Virus record (IMG/VR): IMGVR_UViG_3300037245_001077
Span: 96,001 to 160,000 of that record
Length of the DNA stretch: 64,000 nucleotides
DNA from: a virus
Strand: one strand, 5' to 3'
Shown: positions 14,723 through 41,635 of the stretch, in pieces
Position numbering within the stretch: the stretch's first letter is position 1
How the letters are laid out: each line of letters opens with the position of its first letter
Notes under the pieces: generated by a model
The model's database searches: none
The model's input: the letters and a program-made list of their open reading frames with translations, nothing else
Told to the model about the DNA's origin: nothing
Position numbers and translations under genes: made by a program

Positions 14723-15076
14723 ATGAGCTTTCGTGAAAAAGTAGACGAACATATCGAAGAGACATTGATGGAAGGCGTTCTTCCGGACGTAGACGACGTT
14801 CTGGAGATAGAAGTGCCTAACCAGAAATCGGGACCACAGGCGAGTGGTGATGGAGGCGGGCCAAAGAGTGCTCGGGCTAGAGAAGCCACCTTCACTGACC
14901 ATACTGCACCCCCGAATTTTGGTGGAGCTAGCCGGGATAAGAAGTTCCCGTGCCCGCCTTTCAGTAATGCCAACAGAAGCATTCCACCTGCGAAATTCGG
15001 TGGTGCTGCCAAGATCAAAGAAGAGGCTATTCAAGCCGTTCTTGCTGACTTGGAAGCTATGCAGGATGCCGAATAA
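14723..15076 (+). CDS. hypothetical head/core protein with acidic leader
   Basis: GGAGG RBS; MSFREKVDEHIEETLME leader; PPNFGGA/PPAKFGGA duplication. Confidence 0.55.
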   Translation: MSFREKVDEHIEETLMEGVLPDVDDVLEIEVPNQKSGPQASGDGGGPKSARAREATFTDHTAPPNFGGASRDKKFPCPPFSNANRSIPPAKFGGAAKIKEEAIQAVLADLEAMQDAE

Positions 15077-16188: not shown

Positions 16189-18006
16189 ATGCCTGAAAAT
16201 AAATTGATTCAGGGCTTTATGCGTATGACTGGGCTGGATAAGGTTATTCAGCGTGAAGTAGCTCTACGCGCACAGCTCGGGGGTATCCAAACTCAATTCG
16301 CTGGTGGTGATGACCTTGTTGGGGATTTGGCTACTATTGAAGAGGCCCTAAGTCAGTTCAATATGATTACCCGGATGCATCGTGAACGTAGGATGCGTTA
16401 TCGGGATTACGAAGCGATGGACAACTACGGAGACGTATCCGTAGCTTTAGATATCTATGCGGAAGAGGCTACTCAGACTGATCTCGTTAAGGACGAGAAC
16501 CTCTGGGTAACGGGTGACGATGCTCGTGCAGTAGAAGAGGTGCAAAAATTTCTTGTTAAGCACCGTATGCATACCCTGATCCAGGGGTTTGCTCGGAATC
16601 TTGCTAAGTATGGAGACATGTTCCTATCCTTGAGGTATACGTATGAGGGGATTGATCGTATTCTCTATCTTCCCCCGGACTATATCCACCGTATTGGCCC
16701 TAGTCTGGATCAGATTAAGCACTTCAAGCTGGAGCACCAGCTTGCCAAGGTTTCTCCCCGTCAAGATGGGCTGTTGCTCCCTTGGGAGTGTGTCCATTTA
16801 AGATTGCTTTCGTTCGGGTTCTCCACTCTTTATGGGCGTTCTATGATTGAGCCTGCACGTAAGCGTTGGTTGCACCTAAAACTTCTTGAAGATGCGGTTG
16901 CTATCTACCGTTTGAATCGGGCTGTTGAGCGGATCGTTTTCTACATCGATGTGGGTTCTGCTTCACCTTCTGAGTCTCTGCGGATTGTAAACACCTACAA
17001 ACGGAAGTTTGGAAATAAGCGTTCTTACATTGATCCGTCGCAGGGTACATTCGAGCAGCAGTATGACCCCCACAACATGTTGGAAAACATCTACTGGCCT
17101 GTGAATAGTGCTACTGAGCGATCTCGCATCGAGAAGCTGAACCCTCCGCCTGAGCAGGGACAACTTCAGGATCTTGATCACTTCAACGAGAAACTTTATG
17201 TGGCTCTAGGTATTCCGCGTGATTACCTAACTGGAGAAACTTCAGGAAGCTGGAATAGCCGGGAAGCTTTGGCTCTTCAAGATGTTCGATTCTCCCGTAA
17301 GCTACATATGCTTCAGATTGCTCTCCTAGAGGGCCTGGAGACCCTGTGCCGCTTCCACCTTGCTGTCCTGTGGGGCGATCCTGACAGAGCGGTAGCAGCT
17401 CGGTTTAATCTCCATCTAGCGGATATCTCTAAGGTAGCTCGCCAACAGTACGACACCGTTATGCTTAATCGTATCCAGCTCTTGACCATGATGAATGATC
17501 TTGGTACTCAAATGAGCTTTAACCGGGACGTGTGGGTACCGTTTGTTGTTGAGAACTTCTTCCCTGATATTCCGAAAGAAATGATTTCGCAGTTGATCAT
17601 CCCTGATGAAGAGTTGGCTGCGGCAGGAGATGAGTTAGACGCTATGAGAAATCCTCCTCCTGCTGCGGCAGCAGCTAAGAAACCTGCTGCGGCAGCAGCC
17701 AAGAAACCTGCTGCGGCAGCAGCCAAGAAACCTGCTGCTAAAAAGAAGAAGACTACTACTGAGGTTATCCGGCACACGATCATGAATGATTTGTTGAGCC
17801 GTAATCTCGTAGAAGATAAGGACAAAAAACTTTTAGAAGATCTCCTTGCTGTAAGTGGGACCATACAGGGTCCACAGGATTTCTCTTTTACTTTAGACCA
17901 CCCTGTAGAAATTCCACGGAAAGTTTTACAAGAGTTGGTGAAGCAACATTCGAGGAAGAAGAAGCCTAATAGTGTCCTCGTGGAGACAACCAATGGGGGT
18001 AAGTAG
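16189..18006 (+). CDS. portal protein (T4 gp20-like)
   Basis: YRDYEAMD..DVSVALDIYAEEA, LKLLEDAVAIYRLNRAVERIVFYIDVG and DLDHFNEKLYVALGIP are gp20 family motifs. Confidence 0.93.
   Translation: MPENKLIQGFMRMTGLDKVIQREVALRAQLGGIQTQFAGGDDLVGDLATIEEALSQFNMITRMHRERRMRYRDYEAMDNYGDVSVALDIYAEEATQTDLVKDENLWVTGDDARAVEEVQKFLVKHRMHTLIQGFARNLAKYGDMFLSLRYTYEGIDRILYLPPDYIHRIGPSLDQIKHFKLEHQLAKVSPRQDGLLLPWECVHLRLLSFGFSTLYGRSMIEPARKRWLHLKLLEDAVAIYRLNRAVERIVFYIDVGSASPSESLRIVNTYKRKFGNKRSYIDPSQGTFEQQYDPHNMLENIYWPVNSATERSRIEKLNPPPEQGQLQDLDHFNEKLYVALGIPRDYLTGETSGSWNSREALALQDVRFSRKLHMLQIALLEGLETLCRFHLAVLWGDPDRAVAARFNLHLADISKVARQQYDTVMLNRIQLLTMMNDLGTQMSFNRDVWVPFVVENFFPDIPKEMISQLIIPDEELAAAGDELDAMRNPPPAAAAAKKPAAAAAKKPAAAAAKKPAAKKKKTTTEVIRHTIMNDLLSRNLVEDKDKKLLEDLLAVSGTIQGPQDFSFTLDHPVEIPRKVLQELVKQHSRKKKPNSVLVETTNGGK
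17659..17739 (+). repeat. 24-bp tandem repeat (3 copies plus partial) encoding PAAAAAKK
   Basis: CCTGCTGCGGCAGCAGC(T/C)AAGAAA at 17659, 17683 and 17707, partial at 17731. Confidence 0.95.
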
Positions 18007-18338
18007 TGTCAGTAACCTATCAGAAGTTGGCCGGTCGAATTCAGAATGACCCAAAGGCCCTAGACTACACACAAACGCAGCTCATGATCCTGATGAACAG
18101 GGTTTTCTTTCACATTGGGGATGCGCTAGCTTCCGGTGAAGACGTATACCTTGAAGGCTTTGGTCGGTTTTACCCAGACTGTAAACCCCCAAGAAAGATC
18201 AAGTCGGGGTTAACGTCAGAAGAGCACTTGACAGAGTTCAAAGTATTTGTTAAGTTCAATGCGTTTAAACAGTTAAATATCCAAGTGCAAGAATTGATGA
18301 AACGCTTGGGTATAGAAGATTACCCAGAAGGAGAGTAA
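18006..18338 (+). CDS. HU/IHF-family DNA-binding protein
   Basis: ALASGEDVYLEGFGRF...PPRKIKSGLTSEE...VKFNAFKQL; GTG overlaps the portal stop (TAGTG). Confidence 0.85.
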   Translation: MSVTYQKLAGRIQNDPKALDYTQTQLMILMNRVFFHIGDALASGEDVYLEGFGRFYPDCKPPRKIKSGLTSEEHLTEFKVFVKFNAFKQLNIQVQELMKRLGIEDYPEGE

Positions 18339-19264: not shown

Positions 19265-19297
19265 GCTGCGGTATTCATTAACTGGTAGGAGTTGGAT

Positions 19298-19771
19298 ATG
19301 AATTTGGTTGAAAAGCTAGACGCCTTCCTCACAGACATGTTGGGGAAAGGGTTTTCTGGGGGTGAGATTGCGGAACTACTCCTATTTGAAGATTTTCAAT
19401 TATCGGAGACCGTAAAGCGTGTTCGCCGTAAAGTAAGTGGGATCAACGTTACTATACGTAAAGTGGGGCGTCCTAACCCCCTTAGATCTCAAAAAGCTAA
19501 GAGAGCTGCACGTGCCCACAGAGCTACTCGGGCAGCCGCTTCGCGTAGGTTCCAACGGTCTCCTAAGGCCAAGCAGATGCGTCGAGTGATGTCTCGGGTA
19601 CGGAAGACTAAGCCTAAGCGTCTTAGCCGTCCTAAGCGTCCAGCAATGCGGCGTCCTAAGCGTCCAGCAACCCGGCGTCCTAAGCGTATAGCGACACGGC
19701 GTCCTAAGCGTTCAGCGACACGGCGTCCTAGAGTGAAGCGGTATGGTCCTCCTCGTCGGCGTAGGCGGTAA
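19298..19771 (+). CDS. protamine-like Arg/Lys-rich protein with acidic leader
   Basis: AGGAG RBS before ATG 19298; last 120 aa contain no D or E; RRPKR repeats. Confidence 0.8.
   Translation: MNLVEKLDAFLTDMLGKGFSGGEIAELLLFEDFQLSETVKRVRRKVSGINVTIRKVGRPNPLRSQKAKRAARAHRATRAAASRRFQRSPKAKQMRRVMSRVRKTKPKRLSRPKRPAMRRPKRPATRRPKRIATRRPKRSATRRPRVKRYGPPRRRRR
19628..19732 (+). repeat. 24-bp period repeat encoding RPKRxAxR
   Basis: CGTCCTA(A/G) at 19628, 19652, 19676, 19700 and 19724. Confidence 0.92.
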
Positions 19772-19774
19772 ATT

Positions 19775-22700
19775 ATGAGAGTTGGGGACACTTTTCCTTC
19801 TAATGTTCGTTGGCGTTTCTATGACATCATGGAAATTGACCAAAAAGAATTTAGAAAACGCAGCAACCACAACGGTATTACCAAGTTGATGTGGCATGGC
19901 CTCTTCGGGGGCAATTCTAAAACTTTGCCCATGGTGTATGTCAACGGTATTCCCGCAGAAGAAACTCCTGACCGGGAGAAGTATCTCGTACTTCGCCCAA
20001 AGGGGAGAGAGGGGCTACTTTCGGCTACTGCCCTAGCAACTAAGCACGGGCATCTTCCTCGTAGCTTTTCTGCTTATCTTGTAGCGCCTTCTCCCGAGTT
20101 CTTTGAAAGTTTGTCAGTAAAAGCATATGGGCTTTGGCAGGACGTTGCAGATAGGAAAATAACTGCGAAAGCTGCTGAAGGAAAAATAGAAGACTTCGTT
20201 AACAGAGAAGCCGATAAGATTGTTTTAGGGCGAATAGTTATCCGGGCGAATAGCCGATCAACCAAAAGAGAGTGGACCTCCTTCCAGGTGAGCGCGGATA
20301 TGGGTAGCCGGGAAGTCATGCGTTGGGGAGGATTGGCTGTTGGTACAAGTAATTTTCCTGCACAAGAGAAAGCAAAGCTTACAACAGGGATTAGCCCCAG
20401 TAACCGAGAGCTAGATGTTCGTTCAGCGGTTACTCTAAACTATTATGCTGGGGCTTGGAAACTGTTCCAAAAGTTTGTGACCAGTCCTAGAACATCAGAG
20501 GGGCCTATAGCTCAACTCCATAAAGCTTTGAACGCTGGTTCGGTACGCGAAGGTTATGACACAGCAGACACGCCACACAAAAGAAAGCCTGAAGGGACGC
20601 CTGAGGTTCCTAAAGAAGAAGACAAGCCCACTTTCCGTAGACAAGAGTACAACCGCAGTAAGGTTGTTCCCTCTCGTCCCGTGACAGGTGGTGGGGATGC
20701 CGCTAATTTTGTCACCGCGAAAACGAGTGAAAAAGTATGGCAAAATGCCCAAGGGGTGTACATAGTCCCTAAGGATATGAACAGAAGGTCGATGGGGAGG
20801 CTACAGCCTGTTAGCACAGTGGCTCCTTTGGTTGAGACAAGTGAGTTCAAGGTAATCTTTGGGATTGTGTATGACCACCCACTGTTTAACTCTAGACTCA
20901 AAGACCAAATTTGGTGGTACTCTAACCGAAACCAGTTTATTGCTTCTGCCAAAGAATACGCCATGATGTTTGGAGATCAAGCGCACTTGGCCTATCGGAT
21001 TATCCCAAAAAGAGGGAAATTGGCCAATACGTACATCTCCAAGAACGTGTTTTCTTCACAGTTTACTAGCCCGGAAGTGAATGAAACTACGATTGAGCTA
21101 GGGCGTTTGGTACAATCTTTCATTCGAGCAGGGAAAGAGGGCCAACGGCAATACCCCGTTATAGTCCAAAAACGGTTAGGTATCACGGAAAAGGATATAC
21201 GTAACACGGACAAGGATGAGCGTCCAGAATCAGTTACTCCTGAAGCTTGGGTTCACTACTTACGTTGGGTTCGTAGGCAGACCAGAGGTGTTTTGGGGCT
21301 TAACATTATGGCCTCAATTCCTAAGAAGTATGTGGACCTTGATACTGGAAAACTCAAGCCTCTTCAATTCTCTCGGTATGACCAGAAAGCGCGTATTGGG
21401 CGTAAGAGAACAGAGCAGTTCACAGGAGAAAAAGACGCTAAGGGTAAGGCTATTGAGCCTTGGGGCCTTTACTTGATCCAGTACCTACTAGCTTACAAAG
21501 CCAACCGATCAATGTCGGGGGCTACGTTTATGATCCCGCTCAATGTTTTACGTGCTACTAAGGTAGAATTGTCTCCGCGTAATAGCTTAAAACGAATTGA
21601 TGCAATCTCGTTGAAGAAGCTATTACGAGAGCACTACAATAAATACCGTTTTCTGTCTAGTGGGAATTGGCATTTCATCAAAGCTGAAACACATCTTCAT
21701 TTTCCATTTGCACGATTGATTCGACCTATGGTTGTTGTTAGTAAGGAAAAACTGGATAAGATCAACCAAAAGATTAGCTATCCAGGGATCAGACGTACTC
21801 ATCATGGGTACGTAATTGATGGGATTGAGTACTCAGCTTACGCTATGGTAGTGGCTATGCCCCCATCAGTGGCTGACAAAGAGTTTGGGCTGTTGAATCG
21901 CCACGCATACGCACGCCAGATTATTGACGAACCAGAGATGGTGTATCGTCTACGGCGTACTATCCGAGGCCACCGCCAATCAATGCGGGACATGGGGTTA
22001 ACCAACGTTTATCTTAAGCTCCAAGGGTTAACAGATGAAGATCCAGATGTTATGATGGGTAAAAGCCCTGGTGTATCTTTCCACACGAAGAAGTCACTTG
22101 CCGGTACAGATCCTATAGACGTACTTGGGAAAACTTCAACGATTCTTCCTACGGATTACTACGCTAAGTTTAACGAAATTGGGAAGAGATGGGAACCTAT
22201 TATTAAATCGGTTCTTGATAGAGCAGGTAACGTTGTTAAACGTACTGTTATGGGGTACCAAAGTACTAATGATCTTGCACAAAAACACTCAGCATACATA
22301 CAGTACATCGAGGAAGTGATTAAACTTAACCCAGCAGTGCGTGGTTATCTCAAACGGTATCTTGCGGATCTGGCACGAGTAAGGGCTACTCCTGGGACAG
22401 AACAAGGGGAAATGGCTGCTGCTGCCGATATTTTTGTTAAGTATTTGGAGCGAGAAGTTAATCCTGGTTCAGGGAAACATTACCGGGTACCTACACTCAT
22501 TAACCGCTTAGGACTTACAGAGTACCACGCTCCTTGGGGTTCGGTACATGGTTCTTCTCAAATGATGACCACAAAAGCTCCTTCTGAAGATGTGGCAAAA
22601 TTGATTATTCTGCACCGACTACTTCGTCGTTCTGCTCAGAACAAAGCCGTAGGTCGGGTAATGAACGTGACGAGATTTAGGGGAAGAGGGAAATTGTTTC

Positions 22701-22885
22701 CTGATCTCCATGGACGTATTTTGGCACAATGGGCTTCGGCTAAGTTTATGGTGGTCGCAAGTCATGATCCTAAAGGAGTGCGTCGGATTGAACAACGGAG
22801 ATTCTATAGCGCCCGATCAAGAGAAGTTCAGCAGGCTGCCCCCATGGGAGACCATCGTTACGCTAAGATGCTACGGACAGATTAA
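19775..22885 (+). CDS. large basic hypothetical protein, internal virion protein candidate
   Basis: 1036-aa ORF, K/R-rich, no recognised motif, within the head operon. Confidence 0.65.
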   Translation: MRVGDTFPSNVRWRFYDIMEIDQKEFRKRSNHNGITKLMWHGLFGGNSKTLPMVYVNGIPAEETPDREKYLVLRPKGREGLLSATALATKHGHLPRSFSAYLVAPSPEFFESLSVKAYGLWQDVADRKITAKAAEGKIEDFVNREADKIVLGRIVIRANSRSTKREWTSFQVSADMGSREVMRWGGLAVGTSNFPAQEKAKLTTGISPSNRELDVRSAVTLNYYAGAWKLFQKFVTSPRTSEGPIAQLHKALNAGSVREGYDTADTPHKRKPEGTPEVPKEEDKPTFRRQEYNRSKVVPSRPVTGGGDAANFVTAKTSEKVWQNAQGVYIVPKDMNRRSMGRLQPVSTVAPLVETSEFKVIFGIVYDHPLFNSRLKDQIWWYSNRNQFIASAKEYAMMFGDQAHLAYRIIPKRGKLANTYISKNVFSSQFTSPEVNETTIELGRLVQSFIRAGKEGQRQYPVIVQKRLGITEKDIRNTDKDERPESVTPEAWVHYLRWVRRQTRGVLGLNIMASIPKKYVDLDTGKLKPLQFSRYDQKARIGRKRTEQFTGEKDAKGKAIEPWGLYLIQYLLAYKANRSMSGATFMIPLNVLRATKVELSPRNSLKRIDAISLKKLLREHYNKYRFLSSGNWHFIKAETHLHFPFARLIRPMVVVSKEKLDKINQKISYPGIRRTHHGYVIDGIEYSAYAMVVAMPPSVADKEFGLLNRHAYARQIIDEPEMVYRLRRTIRGHRQSMRDMGLTNVYLKLQGLTDEDPDVMMGKSPGVSFHTKKSLAGTDPIDVLGKTSTILPTDYYAKFNEIGKRWEPIIKSVLDRAGNVVKRTVMGYQSTNDLAQKHSAYIQYIEEVIKLNPAVRGYLKRYLADLARVRATPGTEQGEMAAAADIFVKYLEREVNPGSGKHYRVPTLINRLGLTEYHAPWGSVHGSSQMMTTKAPSEDVAKLIILHRLLRRSAQNKAVGRVMNVTRFRGRGKLFPDLHGRILAQWASAKFMVVASHDPKGVRRIEQRRFYSARSREVQQAAPMGDHRYAKMLRTD

Positions 22886-23934
22886 TGGGTTTTTTGGTTA
22901 TCGAACGTCACGTATTTTACGCAGAGGGGAAAGAATATGCTGACCCGCGTTCTGCTGGGCAGACTCATCTCTTTTTGCGTCACCAACGTGTGCCTTGGGA
23001 AAATAGTTTCTACAAGAGCGTGGTATACCTTTCTGGTGCTCAGTTGTCTACTCCTCCTTCTAGTGGAGGACGTTCGGCTGGAATCGAAACCATGCGTGAG
23101 TACTTTTTGGGGAGTAAGAAATATGCTCACCCAAGACTTATCGTGGGGGATATCCATTCATCTAATGAAATTATGTCCAAGAGTCAGATCGGGCAACTTT
23201 TAGTAGGGTCATACGCTCGCCGGTACAGTGCTTTCGCTAGAGAACACACAATCCGAAAGCCTAAAGACAGAGGGAATGAGGGGTGGTTTGTTTTTGACCC
23301 CTCTCAACCTGGACGGAAAGCGTTGAAGCGGGATACCTACTTACGGTTGGCTAGAGCAGTAGTCAAGAAGATGTCTCCTAACAAAACTACGCGCCCTAAA
23401 ATGTACACAGGTAAAGATGGTCGTCGTCGGCGTTATGACACGGACAAGATTATTGTTTTGGGTATGGGGTATCGGTTAGCTTACTACCACGGTCCAACTT
23501 CTGAGTTGGCGGATATGGGAGCCGATAACAAGCTGCAACGTCGAGTTAACCAGTTCTTAAGTAAGCAAGCAGGCTCTGTAGGTGAAGCAGGGAAAGAACA
23601 GTGGTTCGTACTTGGGAAGTTCAAGACCGCGTATGCGAGTGTTCGTGCGCGTCCTACTCCTCATGGTAGACAGATGAAGGTTTTAACTTACCGTCAGGGT
23701 AAGGGTTTACGCCCAGTAGCTAGAGAAGAAAGTACAGCCATTAGGCCCCTGTTCATTGTTAACGCTAGGACAGAACAAGAAGCTAAAGAGGAGGCTCAAA
23801 AGCGTTTTTCGCAGATGATGGGTACAGATTCGGTCCAACGTCGGCAAGCTGTACTTCAACAGGAGAAGTGGGTTGATAGCGGAGAAGCTGTCATCCCGCG
23901 TAGAATATGGAACATGCACCGCTCAAACCATTAG
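22885..23934 (+). CDS. basic hypothetical protein
   Basis: TAATG coupling; K/R-rich. Confidence 0.6.
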   Translation: MGFLVIERHVFYAEGKEYADPRSAGQTHLFLRHQRVPWENSFYKSVVYLSGAQLSTPPSSGGRSAGIETMREYFLGSKKYAHPRLIVGDIHSSNEIMSKSQIGQLLVGSYARRYSAFAREHTIRKPKDRGNEGWFVFDPSQPGRKALKRDTYLRLARAVVKKMSPNKTTRPKMYTGKDGRRRRYDTDKIIVLGMGYRLAYYHGPTSELADMGADNKLQRRVNQFLSKQAGSVGEAGKEQWFVLGKFKTAYASVRARPTPHGRQMKVLTYRQGKGLRPVAREESTAIRPLFIVNARTEQEAKEEAQKRFSQMMGTDSVQRRQAVLQQEKWVDSGEAVIPRRIWNMHRSNH

Positions 23935-24859: not shown

Positions 24860-25228
24860 ATGCCGACCCTATCGTTTGATGGGTCGGTCTACTACTCTAG
24901 CGAGGTTGATCGTAGGGAGCTAGTAAGGCTTGCCCCGTCGTATGATGTTGATGTGCTCATGCAACGTGCTCGGTCTACTATCGTGGCCGCTGACGTTCAT
25001 GAAATCAACTTTACTGATTTGCCTAACAACAAGGCTACCAACATTCTTCTCTCTGTAGCAGAGGGGGATGTTGATGTGGCTATTACGGATGATAATTCCG
25101 TTGTCAGTACGTATAACCTAAAACCGTCAGGTATGATAATCTTGATGAATACGCTTGTTACGGACCTCACTATTACGGCTATTGCCGACTCCGTGTATGA
25201 CTTGATCGCTGCTGGGAAAGCATCATAA
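24860..25228 (+). CDS. small beta-rich structural protein candidate
   Basis: GGAGGG RBS; alternating beta pattern. Confidence 0.5.
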   Translation: MPTLSFDGSVYYSSEVDRRELVRLAPSYDVDVLMQRARSTIVAADVHEINFTDLPNNKATNILLSVAEGDVDVAITDDNSVVSTYNLKPSGMIILMNTLVTDLTITAIADSVYDLIAAGKAS

Positions 25229-27408
25229 TGCGATTTCCAAAGATACCTTCTGTACCTGAGCTAGGGCTATTTTATGGGGATCAGGGGGGACCGGGAACGA
25301 GTCTCCCTTCTTCTGATGCCCATAAGCTATGTCCTTTTTTAGCTGGGGAAGACAAGGCGTTTTGCTCGTTGGATGGGGCCTTGTGCCCTTTCATCGGGTT
25401 TAACTACCGTAGGTGTAAGAAGTACACCAACAACATGGCTAAGGGTACTTTGCAAGCCAATGACAGGGTTTCAGGTTCCAGTAAACCCCCCCGCATGGAG
25501 GCCCTCACAGAAGCGGCCAAAAAAAGGGGGTCCGCAAGTGAAGAAGACGTTACCAAAGCCTTAGATAGTCTTGAAGCTAAAGACATTAAGTCAGGGCTGT
25601 TTGCTGCTTTCGCTACTGACTTAGGAGTTCTAGCGGATGAAGGTGCGTCTCCAGAGGAATTAAAATCTCTCCAAGCAGAAATTGAACAGCAACTGTTGGC
25701 TTTTAAGCTTGTAACTCCCCCTATCATTGGGGAACCTGAGCCTGGAGAAACTGCGAAAGAGCGTAAAACAAGAGAAAAATTCGCAAGTAAGAGGATCAAC
25801 GCTCAAAAATTTCAACTTGAAAGAAAAAGAAAACTTGTAAACGCTTACATTGTTCGTACACTGGGTAGTATAGATGACAGTGGACGTAGGGCGAATGTTC
25901 AGATTGCCGCTGATGCTTTGTTCGATTTTGCCACTATGAGTGTGGAACAAGGTGTTCCAGATATAACACACTACCAAACACGACAAACCAATATCCGTCA
26001 TCATGATGCAGGAAACACGGAAGATCTGTTTTTCGGTAAGTACTCAGAGCGCATGAAGCACTCAGCTACATCTGCCAGTACAGAAGACCCAGACAACCGT
26101 CCCCATGAGCCACGTAAGGGACCGAATAGGGGTGCAAGTGCTCCTGATCCTAAAGGGCACCCTGGCCCAAGGCCCAGAAAGTCTTACGCTGGAGAGTCCC
26201 AAGCTAAAGCTAGAAATGCTTATGAGGCCCAAAAAAGAGCGGATAAGGCAGCAAGAAAACTTTTTAAAAAAGCCAAGAAGAAGGCTAAAAAGAAGGCTAG
26301 GGATAGACGTTTTAAAGAGCTAGAGAAAGAAGTAGCTAAAGGTGCATCTCCCGCGTATAAAGCATATAAGCGTCACCCTAGCGGACAAGCCCAAACTAGC
26401 ACGAAAGCACGTACCGCAGAGCAATTTGCTGGTTGGGCAAATGAGCTGTCTAAACATTACTCACAAGAGACTATAGACGCTGTTTTCCGTGGAGGAAATC
26501 GTGACGCAGATCAGAATATAGAGACAACAAAACAATCAGCCGAAAAACTCTATGCGAATAATGATGTTAAGAGTATTGCAGATTTACAAAAAGGACTTTT
26601 AGCAAAGTTGAGCAAGTTTGATGATATCGAGCACAAGAAAAAGGTTTTCGATTTAGAGTTTGAAGAAAATAAGAGAAAAGCACGGATACTTGACCCACGT
26701 CTAGACGAAAAGTTGAGAGCTTGGAAAACTGATCCAGAGCGATTGGGTAAAATTGCTACGATGCAAAATAAGGCCATTCGTAGACTCTATAGACTTGAAT
26801 ACCAAAAAGTAAAAATTGGTAACAGTGAGGTTATGCAAACTATTCGTAAAGCCACGGTACCTATGATGACCCGTGCAGACTATGAAGTTATTCGTATGTC
26901 TGAACAGCTTGGGTTGGCCGCAATCCAGAAGCAACATCAGTATGGACGCAAATATGGTAAATTTAACAGTTGGGTGTTGTTTGCAAAATCAATAGTTATA
27001 CCTGCTTTTGCCGCATCTCTGGGGTATACTCAGTATATCCCTATCCTTAGCCGTGCTTTCCCACAGCCCTGGTTAGACTCTTTCTACTTTGCTTACGTAG
27101 AAACACCTTTGCCCAAGTACCAAAGGTATGGGGGTAAAGATGATGGGCTGGTAATGTCTCGTGACGATAAGAGTATGATCAGCCAGCGTATGGTTTCTGG
27201 GCGTAGCAAGAAACTCATGAAGGGCTTTGATAAAGACTATGTTATGCCCCCGGATAGAGCGGTACTACACACCCAGTGGCGTCCTACCACTAAGAAGAGT
27301 TGGGGAAAAATTCGCCATAAAGAGTTGGCAAGACGGTTTCATGCTGCTAAAGTTAAGCCCCCTGCGGGTGCGGCTGATACTTGGCGTCGTGGGTTCTTAC
27401 GGAGATAA
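25228..27408 (+). CDS. basic hypothetical protein with N-terminal 4-Cys motif
   Basis: CPF..C..CPF..C motif; KKAKKKAKKK tract. Confidence 0.6.
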   Translation: MRFPKIPSVPELGLFYGDQGGPGTSLPSSDAHKLCPFLAGEDKAFCSLDGALCPFIGFNYRRCKKYTNNMAKGTLQANDRVSGSSKPPRMEALTEAAKKRGSASEEDVTKALDSLEAKDIKSGLFAAFATDLGVLADEGASPEELKSLQAEIEQQLLAFKLVTPPIIGEPEPGETAKERKTREKFASKRINAQKFQLERKRKLVNAYIVRTLGSIDDSGRRANVQIAADALFDFATMSVEQGVPDITHYQTRQTNIRHHDAGNTEDLFFGKYSERMKHSATSASTEDPDNRPHEPRKGPNRGASAPDPKGHPGPRPRKSYAGESQAKARNAYEAQKRADKAARKLFKKAKKKAKKKARDRRFKELEKEVAKGASPAYKAYKRHPSGQAQTSTKARTAEQFAGWANELSKHYSQETIDAVFRGGNRDADQNIETTKQSAEKLYANNDVKSIADLQKGLLAKLSKFDDIEHKKKVFDLEFEENKRKARILDPRLDEKLRAWKTDPERLGKIATMQNKAIRRLYRLEYQKVKIGNSEVMQTIRKATVPMMTRADYEVIRMSEQLGLAAIQKQHQYGRKYGKFNSWVLFAKSIVIPAFAASLGYTQYIPILSRAFPQPWLDSFYFAYVETPLPKYQRYGGKDDGLVMSRDDKSMISQRMVSGRSKKLMKGFDKDYVMPPDRAVLHTQWRPTTKKSWGKIRHKELARRFHAAKVKPPAGAADTWRRGFLRR

Positions 27409-27410
27409 TA

Positions 27411-28889
27411 ATGGCTCGTACTACACCACGTAAGGTTACTCCTAAACTCCAGTCTGTTGGAGGTGCGCGTCCTGTTAGATTTGAGGGCGGGACAGAGATG
27501 GAGTTGCATGGGTATTTGATCCCTGAGAAGCAAGAAGCTCGGGTAGAGATACCTATTTTCCAACATGCCTTCTACCCCACGCTCAAGCATACTGACCTTG
27601 ACGTTAAGCAGAACATCACCTACCGCTCTGTAACGCTTCCCTCCTTGTCCACCCTTAGGGCACATGGTATCGAGGCTGAGAGGGCCGTTTTTGTGGCTGA
27701 GGTGGTCGTTCATCCTCGGTACATCAAACACGCAAATTATTTCCGGGGGGATTTTCCTGCGAGCATGAAGACTCTTGCCCGTCGAGAAAATATCGTTTTT
27801 CTTTTCGCAGCTAACGATATGCCCTCGGCTAGGTTAAAGCGGAAGCAGGTTTTGAACTTCTGGCGTTTATCCTTTTCTCCTCTTTTGTTGAAGGGGAGAC
27901 AGTACACCTCTGGGCGTATGAGCTTCTTTATGGTTGCGCCTCCAGAGTCTGTGTCTAAGTTTAAGAGGTCGCTTAACCTTGAGGGTGTAACTGCGGAAAA
28001 CGTTAACAAGATTTTAGAATATTACCCTGCGGTTAGCCGTACACGGAGACCAAGAAAACGTGGACCTCGTGCGAAGTACACGGTTGAAGAGCGTAGGTTG
28101 GCTAACGAGTTGGTGAAAGAAACTTCCAGTAGGTTGTCAGACCAACTACTTCCTTTGGTGACTTCAAAATTTGACATCGCACCGAACTCGTCTACAGCTA
28201 AGCAGTTGGATGCTTATTTGAGTAATCCCGCTACTAGCCGAGAACTGATAAAGGCTACAGAAGGTAAGCGTAATCGTGCTTGGGCAGTAAAGAAATGGGT
28301 GAAGTCATCCATGCTTCCCCGTGTAATAGAGATTGCCAAGGACGAAGCGGCAATGGCAGGGGAGTCTATAGTCCGTTTTGCTGTTCTTGCAACTATCACA
28401 ACAGGAGTTAATATCGCCCTAGGACAGGCACAAGCCAGTAGAATAGGTAAAAAAATTAACGCCCTTCAGAAACTTGAGTATAAGCCTTCTCGGATGGCTT
28501 CGCATACACAGGTAGGCGCAGGGACTCTGGCTTTCAAGTTCTCACCTAATGCTAAAGACTTGTCTTCTATGCAACTGCAAGTAACCAAAAAAGCGATGGC
28601 AGAAATTATGGGCAATTTTGGGCAGTGGGATTACACTTCCGCACAAGGGTCTCTTTTTGACATCACGCTGAACTTGCACAATAAAACTAAACCAATAACA
28701 GTTAAATTGGACCATGCTGCGTTAAGAGTTCACCGGGGGCAGAACAAAGAGAACTTAGGGCCTTTTGCACATAAAAGTCAAGATAACTACCTCACCCAAC
28801 ATATTCTACCCGGCGTAGAACGAGAACTGAACATGTGGTTCCAGCACGGTAGAGAGTCTGAAGAAGATAGTCTACTAGGCAATTATTAA
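27411..28889 (+). CDS. basic hypothetical protein with hydrophobic helix
   Basis: ATG 27411 after GGAG; IVRFAVLATITTGVNIALG. Confidence 0.6.
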   Translation: MARTTPRKVTPKLQSVGGARPVRFEGGTEMELHGYLIPEKQEARVEIPIFQHAFYPTLKHTDLDVKQNITYRSVTLPSLSTLRAHGIEAERAVFVAEVVVHPRYIKHANYFRGDFPASMKTLARRENIVFLFAANDMPSARLKRKQVLNFWRLSFSPLLLKGRQYTSGRMSFFMVAPPESVSKFKRSLNLEGVTAENVNKILEYYPAVSRTRRPRKRGPRAKYTVEERRLANELVKETSSRLSDQLLPLVTSKFDIAPNSSTAKQLDAYLSNPATSRELIKATEGKRNRAWAVKKWVKSSMLPRVIEIAKDEAAMAGESIVRFAVLATITTGVNIALGQAQASRIGKKINALQKLEYKPSRMASHTQVGAGTLAFKFSPNAKDLSSMQLQVTKKAMAEIMGNFGQWDYTSAQGSLFDITLNLHNKTKPITVKLDHAALRVHRGQNKENLGPFAHKSQDNYLTQHILPGVERELNMWFQHGRESEEDSLLGNY

Positions 28890-29617
28890 TGCTGTACTTA
28901 GAACAAGAAGCTGCCCTTCGTCAGGTTACAGAGGGAGTAGATGTTCTTTCTCACTTCCTAATGGAGCTGTATGATTTAGACGAGGATGATGCTCTAGACA
29001 CAGTACGAGAACTACCTGATCTTATCAATAAAATCCAAGACAATAAGCTCCGAGAATTGTTTGAGGTAGCGGCTAAGCGTGCTCGTACTAAGGTAATCAA
29101 ATTCAATCAACCAAACCCCGATGAGTTCTACCCTGGCCATCCAAAGTTCATGCCGAATATTACAACCAAGAGTACGTTTAACGAGCATATGGCTCAAGCG
29201 TTAGAGCCTTATGTCACATCTATTATGCGTAAAGTAGCTAAGGATCGTGGCCTTAAAGCTCCTGAGGAGCGTGTTGTTAAAGCAGTTATAGCCCAAACAG
29301 ATTGGGCAAGAGCCGCATACGAAGCTAAACGTATGCCCCCTAAGCCTCCTCCAAGCCAATTACGCCGGTTCTTTAGAAAGTATCTTGGTCCATTAGAACG
29401 CAAGTTATCTGGGGCTACAGGTATGTTGTTTGGAATAGCCATGTCTGCCCTTATGATGCAGATGATGTGGCAAACCTTTAAGCATTCCGCTGAAGCAGCA
29501 GGAGGAGGAGTGAAAAGTTTCATACCCTTCTCTCATGCTTCTCAGCACAGAGTGCAGAACAAGTATCAACGCAAACTGGGTATTCCTAAACGGTTCCGAA
29601 CCTTTAAGACCTTCTAA
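28889..29617 (+). CDS. protein with acidic leader, basic body and TM-like helix
   Basis: Acidic N-terminus ending LRELFE; GATGMLFGIAMSALMMQMMW. Confidence 0.6.
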   Translation: MLYLEQEAALRQVTEGVDVLSHFLMELYDLDEDDALDTVRELPDLINKIQDNKLRELFEVAAKRARTKVIKFNQPNPDEFYPGHPKFMPNITTKSTFNEHMAQALEPYVTSIMRKVAKDRGLKAPEERVVKAVIAQTDWARAAYEAKRMPPKPPPSQLRRFFRKYLGPLERKLSGATGMLFGIAMSALMMQMMWQTFKHSAEAAGGGVKSFIPFSHASQHRVQNKYQRKLGIPKRFRTFKTF

Positions 29618-30401: not shown

Positions 30402-30767
30402 ATGGAAGCACGGCGGCTGATTGACGCAGACATCATCTTAGGGGAGTCCCTTACAAGATTCCATCTTGCGATGGACAACTCGATGTTTCCTGATAGCAGC
30501 ACCGAACTCCATGTAGCTCACCATCCGAATGGTGACCTTAGAGAACCGGCACAATGGTACAATGTTTACGAACATCCTACTGAGCACCAGCTCAAGCTAG
30601 TTCGTGAAGCACTTAATATCGATGAGGACGACTGGAGGATTGTAGAGCACATGCTCGGATCTTTTCGCTGGGTTATTTACCAGCATGTTGACCCCTCAAA
30701 ACGCGCTGAAATTCGTGTCGATGTTGCCGGTATGAAGGCCGGTGAATGGACAACAACCTACTTCTAG
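30402..30767 (+). CDS. hypothetical protein
   Basis: ORF preceding the protease. Confidence 0.55.
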   Translation: MEARRLIDADIILGESLTRFHLAMDNSMFPDSSTELHVAHHPNGDLREPAQWYNVYEHPTEHQLKLVREALNIDEDDWRIVEHMLGSFRWVIYQHVDPSKRAEIRVDVAGMKAGEWTTTYF

Positions 30768-30777
30768 GAGATCACTG

Positions 30778-32313
30778 ATGACTGACCTGATCGAAGTTAT
30801 GCCCTTTGAATATCAGATTGTAGAATCTGAGAATGGCGCGTTCCGCGTTGAAGGGGTTTTCCAACGGTCAGATGTCGAGAATGCTAACAAGCGTGTTTAC
30901 CCCCGTCGTATCTGGGAAAAAGAACTGGGTGAGAAGAGGGTCATGGAAGCCCTTGAAAGCCGTTCTATGTACGGTGAACTGGATCACCCGTCCGATGGGA
31001 AAACGATGTTGAAACGTGTGTCTCATGTAGTTACTAATCTTTCTCTTACTGAGGATGGAACAGTAACTGGCGGGGCAGACATTTTGCCTACACCAAATGG
31101 CCAGATCCTACGCACTCTTTTTGAGTCGGGTACCCAAGTCGGTATTAGTTCTCGGGGGTCAGGTTCCGTACAAGGCGGTGTAGTACAGGAGGATTTCAAG
31201 CTCGGTACTTTTGATTTCGTAGCGCGACCCTCCACCCCAGGTGCGCTCCCCCGCCATGCGGGGGAAATTAGCGGTAAAAAGTCCCGCACAGAAGGTGACG
31301 ATACTATCGAGAATGTTGTCGTAACAGATGCAGGGGAAATGGACTCCGATCTTTTCGACAAGCTTTGTCAAGAATTAGAAACCCTTGATGCTGGCGGCAT
31401 TGTTGATGGTAATCTAACTGAAAGTGAACTTTCTACCATGGATTTCAATGACATCGGTCACGACGTTACAGTGTTGTATAATGCTGTAATGGGAGAACAG
31501 GAGTTCTCTCCTGAATTTGTGGACGCAGTCAGTGAAGATATCCTAAATCTCGGTGGAACACTAACTCAATTAGCGGCTGACCACCCCGAACATGGAATAG
31601 TTATTTCAGATCTACTAGAAAAAGTCGAGAAAAGCCGTGGGGCTGTGATTGCACAAGTCCCACAAGAAATTGTTAAGGAGGAACCCATGGACAGGCTTCA
31701 ATTCATTAAGGACCGTCTCCAAGAGCGCTCTGACAACCAAGTTTTAAGCGCTGAGGAGGAGATCATGCAAGAAGCCGATGAGCTGCGTCAGGAGCTAGAA
31801 GAGCTTACTGATGACGAGTTGATTGACGTAGCCTTGAAAACTGGTGTTCTTGAGCCAGATGGCGTTGACGAAGACGATGACGATGACGAGCCGGAAGCGG
31901 AAGTCACCGTTCAGGATCTTTTGGATTACATCGAAGAACTTGAGAACGATCACGAAGAGGCGACAAACTTGGTTGTGGAGTTGGCGGAGGCCCTTGAAGA
32001 GACAGAAGATGTTGATGACATCACACTAAAGTACGAGGCTTCGTTGAACATCATCCAAGAGACCGTTGGTCGTTATCAACTTCTACAAGAGGCAGTCGGT
32101 GGCGAAGAGAAGGCCGAAGCGATTATGGAAGCCCATATTCAGGCCCTCGAAGCTGCATCAGAAGTCACCGAGAGTGGTGACAAAAAGAGAACCCTTACAG
32201 AAGACGACGATGTCGCCGCTGTTGAGGCACTTTTGAACCAGGACGATCCAGAGGGTGACGCTGAGATGCAGCGTTACGTAGAACTCGCAGAGAGTGCCCT
32301 CGGGTTGAACTAG
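30778..32313 (+). CDS. prohead protease (T4 gp21-like) fused to acidic scaffold domain
   Basis: VEGVFQRSDVENANKRVYP, YGELDHP, VSH, ILPTPNG, VGISSRGSGS and FDFVARPS motifs; start ATG 30778 after AGGAG. Confidence 0.92.
   Translation: MTDLIEVMPFEYQIVESENGAFRVEGVFQRSDVENANKRVYPRRIWEKELGEKRVMEALESRSMYGELDHPSDGKTMLKRVSHVVTNLSLTEDGTVTGGADILPTPNGQILRTLFESGTQVGISSRGSGSVQGGVVQEDFKLGTFDFVARPSTPGALPRHAGEISGKKSRTEGDDTIENVVVTDAGEMDSDLFDKLCQELETLDAGGIVDGNLTESELSTMDFNDIGHDVTVLYNAVMGEQEFSPEFVDAVSEDILNLGGTLTQLAADHPEHGIVISDLLEKVEKSRGAVIAQVPQEIVKEEPMDRLQFIKDRLQERSDNQVLSAEEEIMQEADELRQELEELTDDELIDVALKTGVLEPDGVDEDDDDDEPEAEVTVQDLLDYIEELENDHEEATNLVVELAEALEETEDVDDITLKYEASLNIIQETVGRYQLLQEAVGGEEKAEAIMEAHIQALEAASEVTESGDKKRTLTEDDDVAAVEALLNQDDPEGDAEMQRYVELAESALGLN
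31687..32313 (+). CDS. nested in-frame scaffold protein (internal start)
   Basis: TAAGGAGG (31674-81) plus 5 nt plus in-frame ATG; very acidic coiled coil, 208 aa. Confidence 0.65.
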   Translation: MDRLQFIKDRLQERSDNQVLSAEEEIMQEADELRQELEELTDDELIDVALKTGVLEPDGVDEDDDDDEPEAEVTVQDLLDYIEELENDHEEATNLVVELAEALEETEDVDDITLKYEASLNIIQETVGRYQLLQEAVGGEEKAEAIMEAHIQALEAASEVTESGDKKRTLTEDDDVAAVEALLNQDDPEGDAEMQRYVELAESALGLN

Positions 32314-32346: not shown

Positions 32347-33723
32347 ATGCAAACCCAAGAACTTCACGCACTTGGTGATCTGGGCAAGCAACTTGCAGAA
32401 GGCCACTGGCGTCCACTCGTCGAGAGTATCGAAGATAAAAGCACCAGAGAGCTAACCGCAATTCTGCTAGAAAATGAGCGCAGGTATATTGCAAACATGG
32501 AAGAGGATGTTAGGATCCAGAGTATTGGATCGTTCGAGAAGTTCGTCTTCCCCATCGTTCGTGCTGTGTTCCCGAATCTTATTGCCAAGGATATCGTTAG
32601 TGTCCAGCCTATGACTGGACCGACATCATTGGTATTCTATCTTGATGCCGTGTATGGCACTACCAAAGGTAGCGTCACTGCCGGTGACACAATGTTCAGC
32701 GCCCGTAAGGGTCACCTTGCGGACGACCAGTACTCGTCTGAGTTCGTTGACGGCGAGAAGTATGCCGATTCGGGTGGTACTGCTGTATCATTCACACTTG
32801 GCTTCCATAGTTGCCGTCCGGGTACTTTCTCAGCGGTTTATGAGGATGCACAGGGCGGAAGCGATCTCGTTACCGTTAAAGATAATGGTGTTGGTGGTTT
32901 GACAGCTACTGGTGGTGATGGCATTACTGGTACTGTGACTATCAACTACGCTACTGGCGCAGTTGTATGGACCGCTTCTAGCACTATTGCTTCGACAATT
33001 GTTGGTAGCTACTACTACAATTCTGAGGGATCTGACCAGATTCCTATCGTTGACATCAACCTGTCCAGTGTGCCGGTTCGTGCGATTCCGCACAAATTGC
33101 GTGCTCGTTGGTCAGTTGAGGCCGCAACTAATCTGAAGGCCATCCATGGCATGGACGCTGAGTCTGAGCTGGTTGCCCTTCTCTCTGAGAAGATCCGGTG
33201 GGACGTTGATCGTAGAATCATCTCCGACCTCTTCACTATCGCTTCGGCTGGTTCCGTTACTTGGAACAAGCCCGCTCCTGCCGCGATTTCGTACAACGAT
33301 CACAAGCAGACCTTCATTGACGCACTCATTGAAGCCAGCAACCTGATCTTCCGTGCGACTCGTCGTGGTACTGGTAACTTCGTTGTGTGTGGCACCAACG
33401 TGTCGAACGTCATTGAGTCTCTCTATGGCTTCCGTCCGCAGGCTGTTGCAGGCAACGGTGTTGTGTTCGTTGGTACGCTCCAGGGTCGCTGGTCGATCTA
33501 CAAGGATCCGTACATGGACGCCGACAAGTTCCTCGTTGGTTGGAAGGGTTCTTCTTTCCTTGAGGCCGGTTACGTGTATGCTCCGTATGTGCCGCTGTAC
33601 ACTACACCAACTTACGTACTCGACGACATGTTGAACCGTAAGGGGATGATGAGTCAGTACGGTGTAAAGGCGATCAATGGCGACTTCTATGCGCTTGGTG
33701 AAGTCACTTACAATGTGGTGTAA
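32347..33723 (+). CDS. major capsid protein (T4 gp23-like)
   Basis: AILLENE, PIVRAVFPNLIAKDIVSVQPMTGPT, KLRARWSVEAA.NLKAIHGMDAESEL and AGYVYAPYVPL motifs. Confidence 0.96.
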   Translation: MQTQELHALGDLGKQLAEGHWRPLVESIEDKSTRELTAILLENERRYIANMEEDVRIQSIGSFEKFVFPIVRAVFPNLIAKDIVSVQPMTGPTSLVFYLDAVYGTTKGSVTAGDTMFSARKGHLADDQYSSEFVDGEKYADSGGTAVSFTLGFHSCRPGTFSAVYEDAQGGSDLVTVKDNGVGGLTATGGDGITGTVTINYATGAVVWTASSTIASTIVGSYYYNSEGSDQIPIVDINLSSVPVRAIPHKLRARWSVEAATNLKAIHGMDAESELVALLSEKIRWDVDRRIISDLFTIASAGSVTWNKPAPAAISYNDHKQTFIDALIEASNLIFRATRRGTGNFVVCGTNVSNVIESLYGFRPQAVAGNGVVFVGTLQGRWSIYKDPYMDADKFLVGWKGSSFLEAGYVYAPYVPLYTTPTYVLDDMLNRKGMMSQYGVKAINGDFYALGEVTYNVV

Positions 33724-39974: not shown

Positions 39975-40433
39975 ATGAGAGATAAGATTGTTAAAGTTAG
40001 TGATAAAGTGAAGGGCTTGCGTTCCCGGTCTAAGCGAAATATTGCGGGTTTTAAACAAGCCGCGAAAGAGTACGGTAAGGCTAAATACCCTGTTAGTCGT
40101 AAAGAGGGATTCAAAGCTGGAGGCCGTTTCTATAAAGAGTTGGCCAAAGGTTCTGCTAGTGGGTTAAAGGCCGGGGTTAAAGGTGCTCATGCAACGGGTA
40201 AAGCGATGAAAGCTAAGTACCGTAAAGGTTTTAAAAAGGCCGGTGGGGAGTATCACACTTGGGCGAAAAGTAAAGGTGGTCGCAGTCTTCCTCGTCGATT
40301 GGTTCTTTCAAAAAGTGAAAGAGCAAATATGAAGGGTAAGAAAAAAGCTATGTTCAAGGCTGCTTTTGCCCAACACGAAGTCACCCGTGAAGAAGTTATC
40401 GCTGCTCTCGTAGAAGTTTTTATGAGCGAGTAA
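39975..40433 (+). CDS. Lys-rich basic protein with acidic C-terminal tag
   Basis: K/G/A-rich; ends HEVTREEVIAALVEVFMSE. Confidence 0.7.
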   Translation: MRDKIVKVSDKVKGLRSRSKRNIAGFKQAAKEYGKAKYPVSRKEGFKAGGRFYKELAKGSASGLKAGVKGAHATGKAMKAKYRKGFKKAGGEYHTWAKSKGGRSLPRRLVLSKSERANMKGKKKAMFKAAFAQHEVTREEVIAALVEVFMSE

Positions 40434-41635
40434 TGACTCGGGCAGAACTTCTCCACGAAGGTGGTCTTTATAAGGCTGCTTTTCGCTACGGAAGACGTAA
40501 GGTCCGTGGTGCGGGTGGTGGTGCTTGGCACTATGCTCAGACTACTAAGCGTGATGCTAAGCGTATGGTTAAAGCCCATAGGGTATTGAAAAGAGGGGCA
40601 CTTAAAACTGCCGCTCTCCGGCAAATGTTGGGTACGGATAAGAAAAGAAAATTACGTGGTATTACACACGCAATTACAAGCAAAGCTCAAATGCGTACTC
40701 TAAAGGCTGCGTCTGATCGTCACACGAAAACTATGGGGCGAGCAGCAACTATACGTGATACGGCTGTAGGTCGCAATGCTGTGCGGGTAGGGGCTGTAGC
40801 TTTAGGTGCTAGTGCTCTTTATTATGCTGGGGTTAAAACCTATCGTATGAAGAAGCGGCAAGCTCAAGAGCGCCCTCAATTTAGTAGTTATGATGTGTAC
40901 CCTCAACTAAGCCATTCAGCGGCACGGCAACAAGTACACAACCGTCCAGTTTACTATGATGATCGTGATGTTGGTGGTGGCCCGCCTAGGGTGGAGGATA
41001 TGAACATGATTAGAGAAGAACTAATTGAAATGATGAGTATAGGTGCTTTGGCCAAACGCTCAAAGAGTAATGTGGTTGGCAAGTACAGAGAGATTGGTGG
41101 CATTAAAGGTATGCCTCGTACCTCTAAAAGAAATATGGCTCGGACTTTTACGTCGCTTGACACAAAACGTAAGAAACGAAACAAAAAAAGAATAGCTAGT
41201 TTTGATAGGGCTGCTAAAGCGGCTACTAAAGGCAAGTATCGCAAGACCTATTCTTCTGCCATAGACCGTGCTGATCGACGGGGTAAAAAGATACACCTTG
41301 GAATAGGAGCAGGACTAGCTGCAACTGGGTCTCCAGTTGCTGGAGCTGCGATTGGTGCTTCTGGATTAATACCTTACCATCGTAAAAGTATAAAAGCGAT
41401 GGAACGCCATGTGCAGGGCGTCAAAGCTGTTAAAAAGCAGATACATAAAGAGAAGAAGCGAGCTGATTCGGCTAAATACTTTAGTAAAGAGTATGTGCCT
41501 GCCTGGAACAAGGGACACGAAAAGTCGCCCGTGGTTAAGGGCTACCGAAAAATGGCCAAAAAAATCAAGCGAATGGGCGAAGAAGAAAGAAATCAACTTG
41601 TGGATATGGTATTCGAGGCTCTTCTTCGAGGGTAA
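40433..41635 (+). CDS. basic protein, apparent fusion of two paralogous units
   Basis: MTRAELLHE leader; internal GGAGG plus ATG 41006 giving MIREELIE; two Gly/Ala-rich hydrophobic segments. Confidence 0.7.
   Translation: MTRAELLHEGGLYKAAFRYGRRKVRGAGGGAWHYAQTTKRDAKRMVKAHRVLKRGALKTAALRQMLGTDKKRKLRGITHAITSKAQMRTLKAASDRHTKTMGRAATIRDTAVGRNAVRVGAVALGASALYYAGVKTYRMKKRQAQERPQFSSYDVYPQLSHSAARQQVHNRPVYYDDRDVGGGPPRVEDMNMIREELIEMMSIGALAKRSKSNVVGKYREIGGIKGMPRTSKRNMARTFTSLDTKRKKRNKKRIASFDRAAKAATKGKYRKTYSSAIDRADRRGKKIHLGIGAGLAATGSPVAGAAIGASGLIPYHRKSIKAMERHVQGVKAVKKQIHKEKKRADSAKYFSKEYVPAWNKGHEKSPVVKGYRKMAKKIKRMGEEERNQLVDMVFEALLRG

Follow-up and report, generated by a model that had tools for sequence, protein, structure and literature searches.

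In the usual description of tailed phages, the DNA is packed naked and its charge is neutralised by polyamines and small cations; the mildly basic internal proteins of T4 are an exception. Adenovirus pVII, mammalian protamine P2 and baculovirus P6.9 are Arg-rich proteins that condense DNA, and the precursors of both pVII and protamine P2 carry an N-terminal pro-segment that is later removed. Among the proteins of the T4 prohead, gp68 is a core protein that has been known for decades and whose function is poorly defined.

In T4, a capsid-targeting sequence (CTS) loads proteins into the prohead and is then removed (PMC3012670, PMC5694885). In the case of the internal proteins IPI, IPII and IPIII, the protease gp21 removes this propeptide, and the basic mature proteins, present in about 1000 copies, stay with the DNA, where their lysines contact the phosphates (PMC3012670, PMC5694885). 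gp21 cuts after the Glu of a short motif, L/I-X-E (PMC9026906); its sites include ITE-6 and LTE-619 in Alt (PMC5694885), and IAE-10 / ITE-19 in the internal proteins, as read from the T4 record. The same protease cuts the prohead core protein gp68 (PMC9958956, PMC5694885), present in about 240 copies (PMC9958956), and the major capsid protein gp23 is cut after residue 65 (PMC9958956). T4 gp68 has 141 aa and is encoded between the portal and the protease, the gene order being 20-67-68-21. In the giant phages SPN3US and phiKZ, the long propeptides of head proteins are thought to direct these proteins to the prohead and to leave it after being cut into small pieces (PMC5694885).

Here, we describe a gene for a 157-aa protein found in a stretch of 64,000 nucleotides (referred to below as the window) of an uncultured T4-type marine-sediment phage. 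The source is an IMG/VR virus record of 176.5 kb, estimated to be 81% complete, with all its genes on one strand. Judging from its sequence, this protein is best filed as a variant of the T4-type core and internal proteins matured by a protease, rather than as a convergent invention without phage precedent. The features of the locus are listed in Table 1.

Table 1. Features of the 157-aa protein gene and of the surrounding head operon, in window positions.
Feature	Position	Strand	Basis and remarks
CDS of the 157-aa putative precursor	19298..19771	+	ATG start, TAA stop at 19769-19771; dN/dS 0.19; ~30 homologous clusters
Shine-Dalgarno AGGAG	19287..19291	+	6 nt 5' of the ATG at 19298
Acidic leader, residues 1-37, net -6	19298..19408	+	Composition; AF2 helices 3-16, 21-30
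L35-S36-E37, predicted prohead-protease site, cut after E37	19400..19408	+	Conservation; aligned to gp68 LNE-67
Conserved basic core, residues 38-105	19409..19612	+	Predicted beta-hairpin 40-56, GRPNP motif, three helices 61-104 (pLDDT 90-98); dN/dS 0.09
Disordered Arg/Pro/Lys tail, residues 106-157	19613..19768	+	24-nt x 4.3 tandem repeat (19628-19730), terminal RRRRR
T4 gp20-type portal	16189..18006	+	Pfam 3e-43; upstream boundary of the portal-to-protease interval
T4 gp21-type prohead protease	30742..32313	+	Peptidase_S77 at residues 33-169, acidic C-terminal region fused
T4 Gp23-type major capsid protein	32347..33723	+	LLE-42 at the position of the T4 gp23 cut

The protein begins with MNLVEKLD, and its charges are sharply divided. 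The leader has eight D/E, two K and no R, and its final residue, E37, is the last acidic residue of the chain, whereas the body (residues 38-157, with a predicted mass of 14.4 kDa) has no D/E at all, 38 R, 15 K and 13 P, which gives 44% K+R and a net charge of +53. These 120 residues are the longest acid-free run among all + strand open reading frames (ORFs) of the window and, given a typical D+E content near 12%, the chance of such a run would be about 2e-7. According to Tandem Repeats Finder, the repeat in the tail has 89% matches and encodes RRPKRxAx octads, whose number varies among close relatives. The original prediction had described a 37-aa acidic leader followed by 120 residues without an acidic one, together with 8-aa RRPKR repeats and a terminal RRRRR; both parts of this description are borne out by the translated gene, the repeat analysis and the reading of the chain end.

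In comparison with one 90%-identical relative, dN/dS rises from its value in the core (Table 1) to 0.27 in the leader and 0.28 in the tail. Because of the overall ratio of 0.19 and the 29 representative homologues presented below, the ORF is a real gene under selection. It is tightly coupled to the gene downstream, whose ATG, at 19775, comes 3 bases after its stop codon. Neither a sigma-70 promoter nor a terminator was found framing the gene, and the T4 late promoter TATAAATA showed no enrichment. The region encoding the tail is also overlapped by an antisense ORF of 100 aa (19489-19791, - strand), rich in Arg, Leu and Gly repeats, which mirrors the CGN-rich Arg-codon repeats and is most likely not a gene.

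Relatives of the 157-aa protein are few. A word-indexed search found six of them, and when 1.84 billion representatives were searched exhaustively with the HMM, 29 proteins matched (18 below 1e-10), nearly all of them of 100-175 aa; the family counts about 30 clusters. The alignment used for the statistics on leaders and bodies, and also for the structure prediction, has 32 members. Their leaders comprise 7-54 aa (median 45) with a net charge of -2 to -15; their bodies, with a median of 100 aa and 32-49% K+R, hold just 17 D/E in 3107 residues, and most members have RRR at the C-terminus. The partition into acidic and basic parts is thus a family trait and no quirk of a single sequence. Two metagenomic fusion members of 570-583 aa (P0025 and P0028) consist of a 67-residue N-terminal extension, the basic core and some 400 further residues; the L-x-E and the basic core lie at residues ~67-157, the extension is different and partly basic, and no Pfam domain was found in either protein.

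Described families gave no counterpart. Scans of the 157-aa protein against Pfam, PHROGs and NCBIfam returned no family, and when all 32 members were compared with Pfam at E <= 1, the only matches were single and scattered. In the phage GenBank collection, there was no match to the region by blastn or to the protein by tblastn, and scans of IMG/VR for the loci of four members (P0008, P0025, P0033 and P0020) found none. Within the window itself, an acidic ORF of 117 aa (14723..15076, +), conserved in two relatives, begins with 22 residues resembling the leader (MSFREKVDEHIEETLMEGV). The leader HMM matches it with an E value of 0.007, N-terminus aligned to N-terminus, and this ORF may carry a second copy of the leader's targeting helix.

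The AlphaFold2 (AF2) model was built with the 32-sequence alignment and has a mean pLDDT of 80.8. The two predicted helices of the leader are followed by a loop (residues 31-39), where confidence falls to 66, then by a beta-hairpin with strands 40-46 and 49-56 and by helices 61-73, 75-86 and 89-104, the core being predicted at pLDDT 90-98; from about residue 105 the chain is disordered. L35-S36-E37 would thus sit in the sole low-confidence loop of the folded part, between leader and core. The model matched no known fold in Foldseek searches of the PDB and BFVD, a wide search with VIA-align gave long-helix matches only (best Z 4.0), and the ESM Atlas gave no usable match.

This boundary is conserved. 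In the 32-sequence alignment only three columns are invariant, and E37 is one of them; L35 is shared by at least 90% of the members. All 32 show [LIVF]-x-E at the boundary, 29 of them with Leu, and the switch from acidic to basic comes directly after the Glu of this tripeptide. In the leader of the window protein, [LI]xE occurs four times, with the Glu at residues 5, 26, 31 and 37. Besides the boundary, the leaders of the family contain 77 [LI]xE sites, whereas shuffles preserving composition gave 38.5 +/- 5.2, a count in which related sequences are taken as independent. This surplus agrees with what is known of propeptides, which are cut at several sites. The body, being 120 residues without any Glu, would in turn be uncuttable by a Glu-specific protease. 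From the motif, its conservation and the T4 precedent, we infer that the prohead protease cleaves the 157-aa protein after E37, although L-x-E is a short and common motif. The original prediction had already taken the protein for a precursor; to this idea can now be added the invariant L-x-E at the boundary, the known gp21 motif and an S77 protease in the same operon, while the cleavage event itself keeps the status of a prediction.

This protease has 30% identity to T4 gp21, with its GELxHP and SSRG motifs conserved. Contrary to T4, where protease and scaffold are encoded by the separate genes 21 and 22, the window phage has both in one ORF: the acidic region fused to the S77 domain extends over ~340 aa, has a pI of 4.1 and contains 18 [LI]xE sites, and the product is presumed to be at once the processing enzyme and the scaffold. 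The alignment between the capsid protein and T4 gp23 begins at residues 67 and 95, respectively, and this puts LLE-42 at the position of the T4 cut. A search of the genome for a homologue of gp67 (PF17634) found none.

The gene for the 157-aa protein lies inside the portal-to-protease interval, with ~11 kb of orphan genes between it and the protease. The local order is terminase / 117 aa / 367 aa / portal / HU-like / 274 aa / 157-aa gene / ~1030 aa / ~350 aa, and this same order is found in relatives at 72%, 90%, 49% and ~40% identity; the 72%-identical relative (G001) also has the S77 protease, and the contig at ~40% has a T4-type portal. For the upstream 274-aa ORF, assignment as an SPP1 gp7 / Mu F-like protein was dropped, as PF04233 matches nothing in the genome at E <= 10.

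Several other genes of this region deserve description in their own right. The C-terminus of the portal (17650-17800) has three PAAAAAKK repeats and a KKKK, followed by an extension of ~80 aa with [LI]xE sites; this tail is basic and histone-H1-like, and its repeat is shorter in the 72% relative. The stop codon of the portal is overlapped by an HU-family gene (18006-18338; Pfam Bac_DNA_binding, 1e-9), an unusual location inside a head operon, and two relatives have an HU gene at the corresponding position (L007, 8715-9083; L011, 8709-9083). Between portal and protease there is also a block of basic orphan proteins of 1036, 349, 726 and 502 aa (19775-22885, 22885-23934, 25228-27408 and 27381-28889, respectively), all with a pI of ~10 and none with a match in Pfam, PHROGs or NCBIfam; the AF2 model of the 1036-aa neighbour has a pLDDT of 41.5. 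The following protein, of 242 aa (28889-29617) and conserved in a relative, has an acidic leader of ~59 residues ending in LFE and then a basic body (VAAKRARTK...), an acidic-then-basic layout like that of the 157-aa protein. N-terminal x-E sites are kept between relatives in the 274-aa ORF (LHE|AK) and in the 349-aa ORF (VIE|R). Further on, two Lys/Gly/Ala-rich proteins (39975-40433, 152 aa, pI 10.6; 40433-41635, 400 aa, pI 10.9) are encoded directly 3' of a structural-looking gene of 614 aa.

The described protein closest to the 157-aa family is gp68. T4 gp68 came up in a search with the family HMM, scoring only 12.7 bits, and we assembled a set of seven such proteins from Straboviridae, formed by the product of T4 gene 68 (L014, 3024-3449) and six homologues, for which there is no Pfam family. 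All seven have an N-terminal half with a net charge of -10 to -16 and 4-6 [LI]xE sites, and a C-terminal half with a net charge of +21 to +31 and 34-42% K+R. At the switch, there is an invariant Glu in an L/I-x-E, then a hydrophobic-V-K-[H/R]-V stretch, and the basic C-terminal 73-81 residues are free of [LI]xE in every gp68 examined. When the two alignments are compared by hhalign, the probability is 83% (E 9e-6, score 38.0, 64 columns), against a score of 16.0 +/- 3.6 and a maximum of 29.3 in 60 controls with the gp68 columns shuffled within each half. The alignment pairs LSE37 with LNE67 and GRPNP..AKRAAR with TGLSK..IARKA, and it also covers the leader helix and the hairpin. On this comparison, the two families are probably remotely homologous; the homology is probable rather than certain because their plain HMMs do not cross-hit. 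The gp68 HMM had no match in the genome at E <= 1, and the small portal-to-protease ORFs of Microcystis phage Mel-JY01 and of Flavobacterium phage immuto matched neither the family HMM nor the gp68 HMM. Mel-JY01 is the nearest cultured relative by portal similarity.

Both families thus share the location of the gene between the portal and the S77 protease, an acidic N-terminal half with L/I-x-E sites, one of them at the switch, a site-free basic C-terminal half, and the hydrophobic-V-K-[R/H]-V stretch after the switch. They differ in proportion and in composition. The leader has 37 aa in the window protein and 67 aa in gp68, whereas the body is longer and about twice as highly charged in the former (120 aa and +53, against 74 aa and +23), dominated by Arg, free of acidic residues and provided with an Arg/Pro repeat tail and a poly-Arg end, which gp68 does not have. 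In addition, T4 gene 68 adjoins the protease gene, contrary to the ~11 kb that separate the two in the window.

The T4 internal proteins resemble the window protein in having an N-terminal propeptide that ends in L/I-x-E, a position taken here by LSE-37. However, the 37-aa leader is not the T4 CTS, of 10-20 residues and beginning MKT[YF][QK]EF..., and the mature internal proteins, which are Lys-rich and have many acidic residues, show just a mild excess of basic charge (net +2 to +10, 14-19% K+R). The family HMM does not find them (E >= 0.9 in a search of five sequences), the mature parts being without homology. Two divergent members of the family (P0033 and P0037) do begin with MKTFKEF, the first seven residues of T4 IPI, a sequence close to the MKTYQEFIAE of IPII and IPIII (T4 RefSeq record). 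As for SPN3US and phiKZ, their propeptides are likewise provided with several protease sites and longer than the T4 CTS, but the protease is of the S80 type with an A/S/G-x-E motif, and the cargo proteins are large and not polycations.

With protamine, pVII and P6.9 the window protein has in common an Arg-rich body nearly free of acidic residues, yet the proteases and the assembly routes differ, and what they share does not go beyond function and composition. None of the 32 members matched the Pfam families of these proteins at E <= 1, and a profile search of the PDB by sequence gave no match, nothing falling below E 0.2. Convergence with pVII and protamine P2, as proposed in the original prediction, overlooked the phage precedents, since gp68, probably a remote homologue, has the same layout and position. 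In view of gp68 and the T4 internal proteins, the precursor would be explained by T4 biology and not by convergence alone.

The reading we favour, with a probability of roughly 55%, is that the gene encodes a prohead core protein of the gp68 type, in which the basic half has expanded to a polycation resembling protamine. The 157-aa protein would be made with the other head proteins, from a co-directional operon that is seen in the window, and would be placed in the prohead core by its acidic two-helix leader and by the attraction of the +53 body to the acidic scaffold. There, the S77 protease would cut after L35-S36-E37 and at the L/I-x-E sites of the leader, which would exit as small peptides, and the Glu-free body would resist the protease and stay in the head. 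During packaging, the helical core and the Arg/Pro tail would bind phosphates as a counter-ion, and the body would probably leave with the DNA at infection. At 1000 copies, a charge of +53 would neutralise ~12% of the phosphates of a genome of ~218 kb, a size estimated from 176.5 kb at 81% completeness. Condensation of DNA inside the head by residues 38-157 is a plausible activity.

Two other readings also bring the protein into the prohead. It could be a pure assembly factor that builds or sizes the core, its basic half pairing with the acidic scaffold, after which both halves exit the head; T4 gp68 would be the model for this, as reviews describe its breakdown into small peptides that exit from the head (PMC9958956), which favours a pure scaffold role, and link it to head-size determination (PMC9958956, PMC9026906), and the scaffold region of the protease ORF, with its pI of 4.1, would be a natural partner for the +53 body. 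The main argument against it is that a body without Glu could not be fragmented by a protease specific for L/I-x-E, and an intact polycation of 14.4 kDa far exceeds the peptides thought to escape through the pores of the shell; since the variable repeat tail and the poly-Arg end are not obviously needed for pairing with a scaffold either, we regard this role on its own as rather unlikely. A body that stays in the head could instead have been selected for what it does once in the infected cell, which would be, for example, to shield the incoming DNA from nucleases or restriction, to compact the host nucleoid, or to bind RNA or ribosomes. Such an ejected effector, packaged and cleaved in the same way, would mirror the anti-restriction protein IPI, as the internal proteins of T4 enter the host by injection and target its defences (PMC3012670, PMC9958956), and the large basic orphan proteins of the block to which the gene is coupled are possible ejected cargo themselves. 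Still, the composition of the body suggests non-specific binding to polyanions over a specific target, and PADLOC-type and other libraries gave no match pointing to defence, so that as the selected function it appears unlikely, even though a role of this kind is compatible with the reading of a resident polycation and does not exclude it.

The remaining possibility is that the protein is not cleaved at all and works in the cytoplasm as a nucleic-acid binder (for example, as an accessory of packaging, as a nucleoid or transcription factor, or in association with the ribosome), with the acidic part as a permanent regulatory or dimerisation domain. The AF2 fold is confident for residues 1-30 as well as for 40-104, and the leader could accordingly be a stable domain, and Mel-JY01, the related Microcystis phage, has a gene annotated as ribosomal protein S21 in its head module, flanked by the genes for the prohead protease and the capsid protein (L005, 13494-13721). 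Against this stand the invariant Glu at the boundary, the enrichment of L/I-x-E in the leader and the location of the gene within the portal-to-protease interval in every relative; besides, a search of the 32 members at E <= 1 gave no match to Ribosomal_S21 or to a DNA-binding family of Pfam, and two of them carry a CTS of the T4 type. We consider this alternative very improbable.

Beyond the window, a wider and more tentative proposal would be that gp68-type proteins in general have two jobs, the acidic half being a disposable scaffold or targeting element and the basic half a resident counter-ion of the DNA, here expanded into a true protamine analogue, with the genome packaged as nucleoprotein and not as naked DNA; this we hold to be possible, though doubtful. 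Its partners in such a nucleoprotein would be the HU-like protein, the Ala/Lys-repeat tail of the portal and several other very basic orphan proteins of the head module. A +53 protein of the head operon, matured by a protease, would be the closest phage counterpart to the protamines and adenovirus pVII, and would bear on packaging forces, on capsid pressure and on the state of the DNA at injection. For T4, since the basic C-terminal half of gp68 has no gp21 site and should survive maturation, the dual role, if true, predicts a polycationic gp68 fragment of 74 residues (~8.5 kDa) that has gone unnoticed inside T4 heads. Even though the window phage is uncultured, gp68 would thereby gain a testable second role in T4, a fully tractable system.
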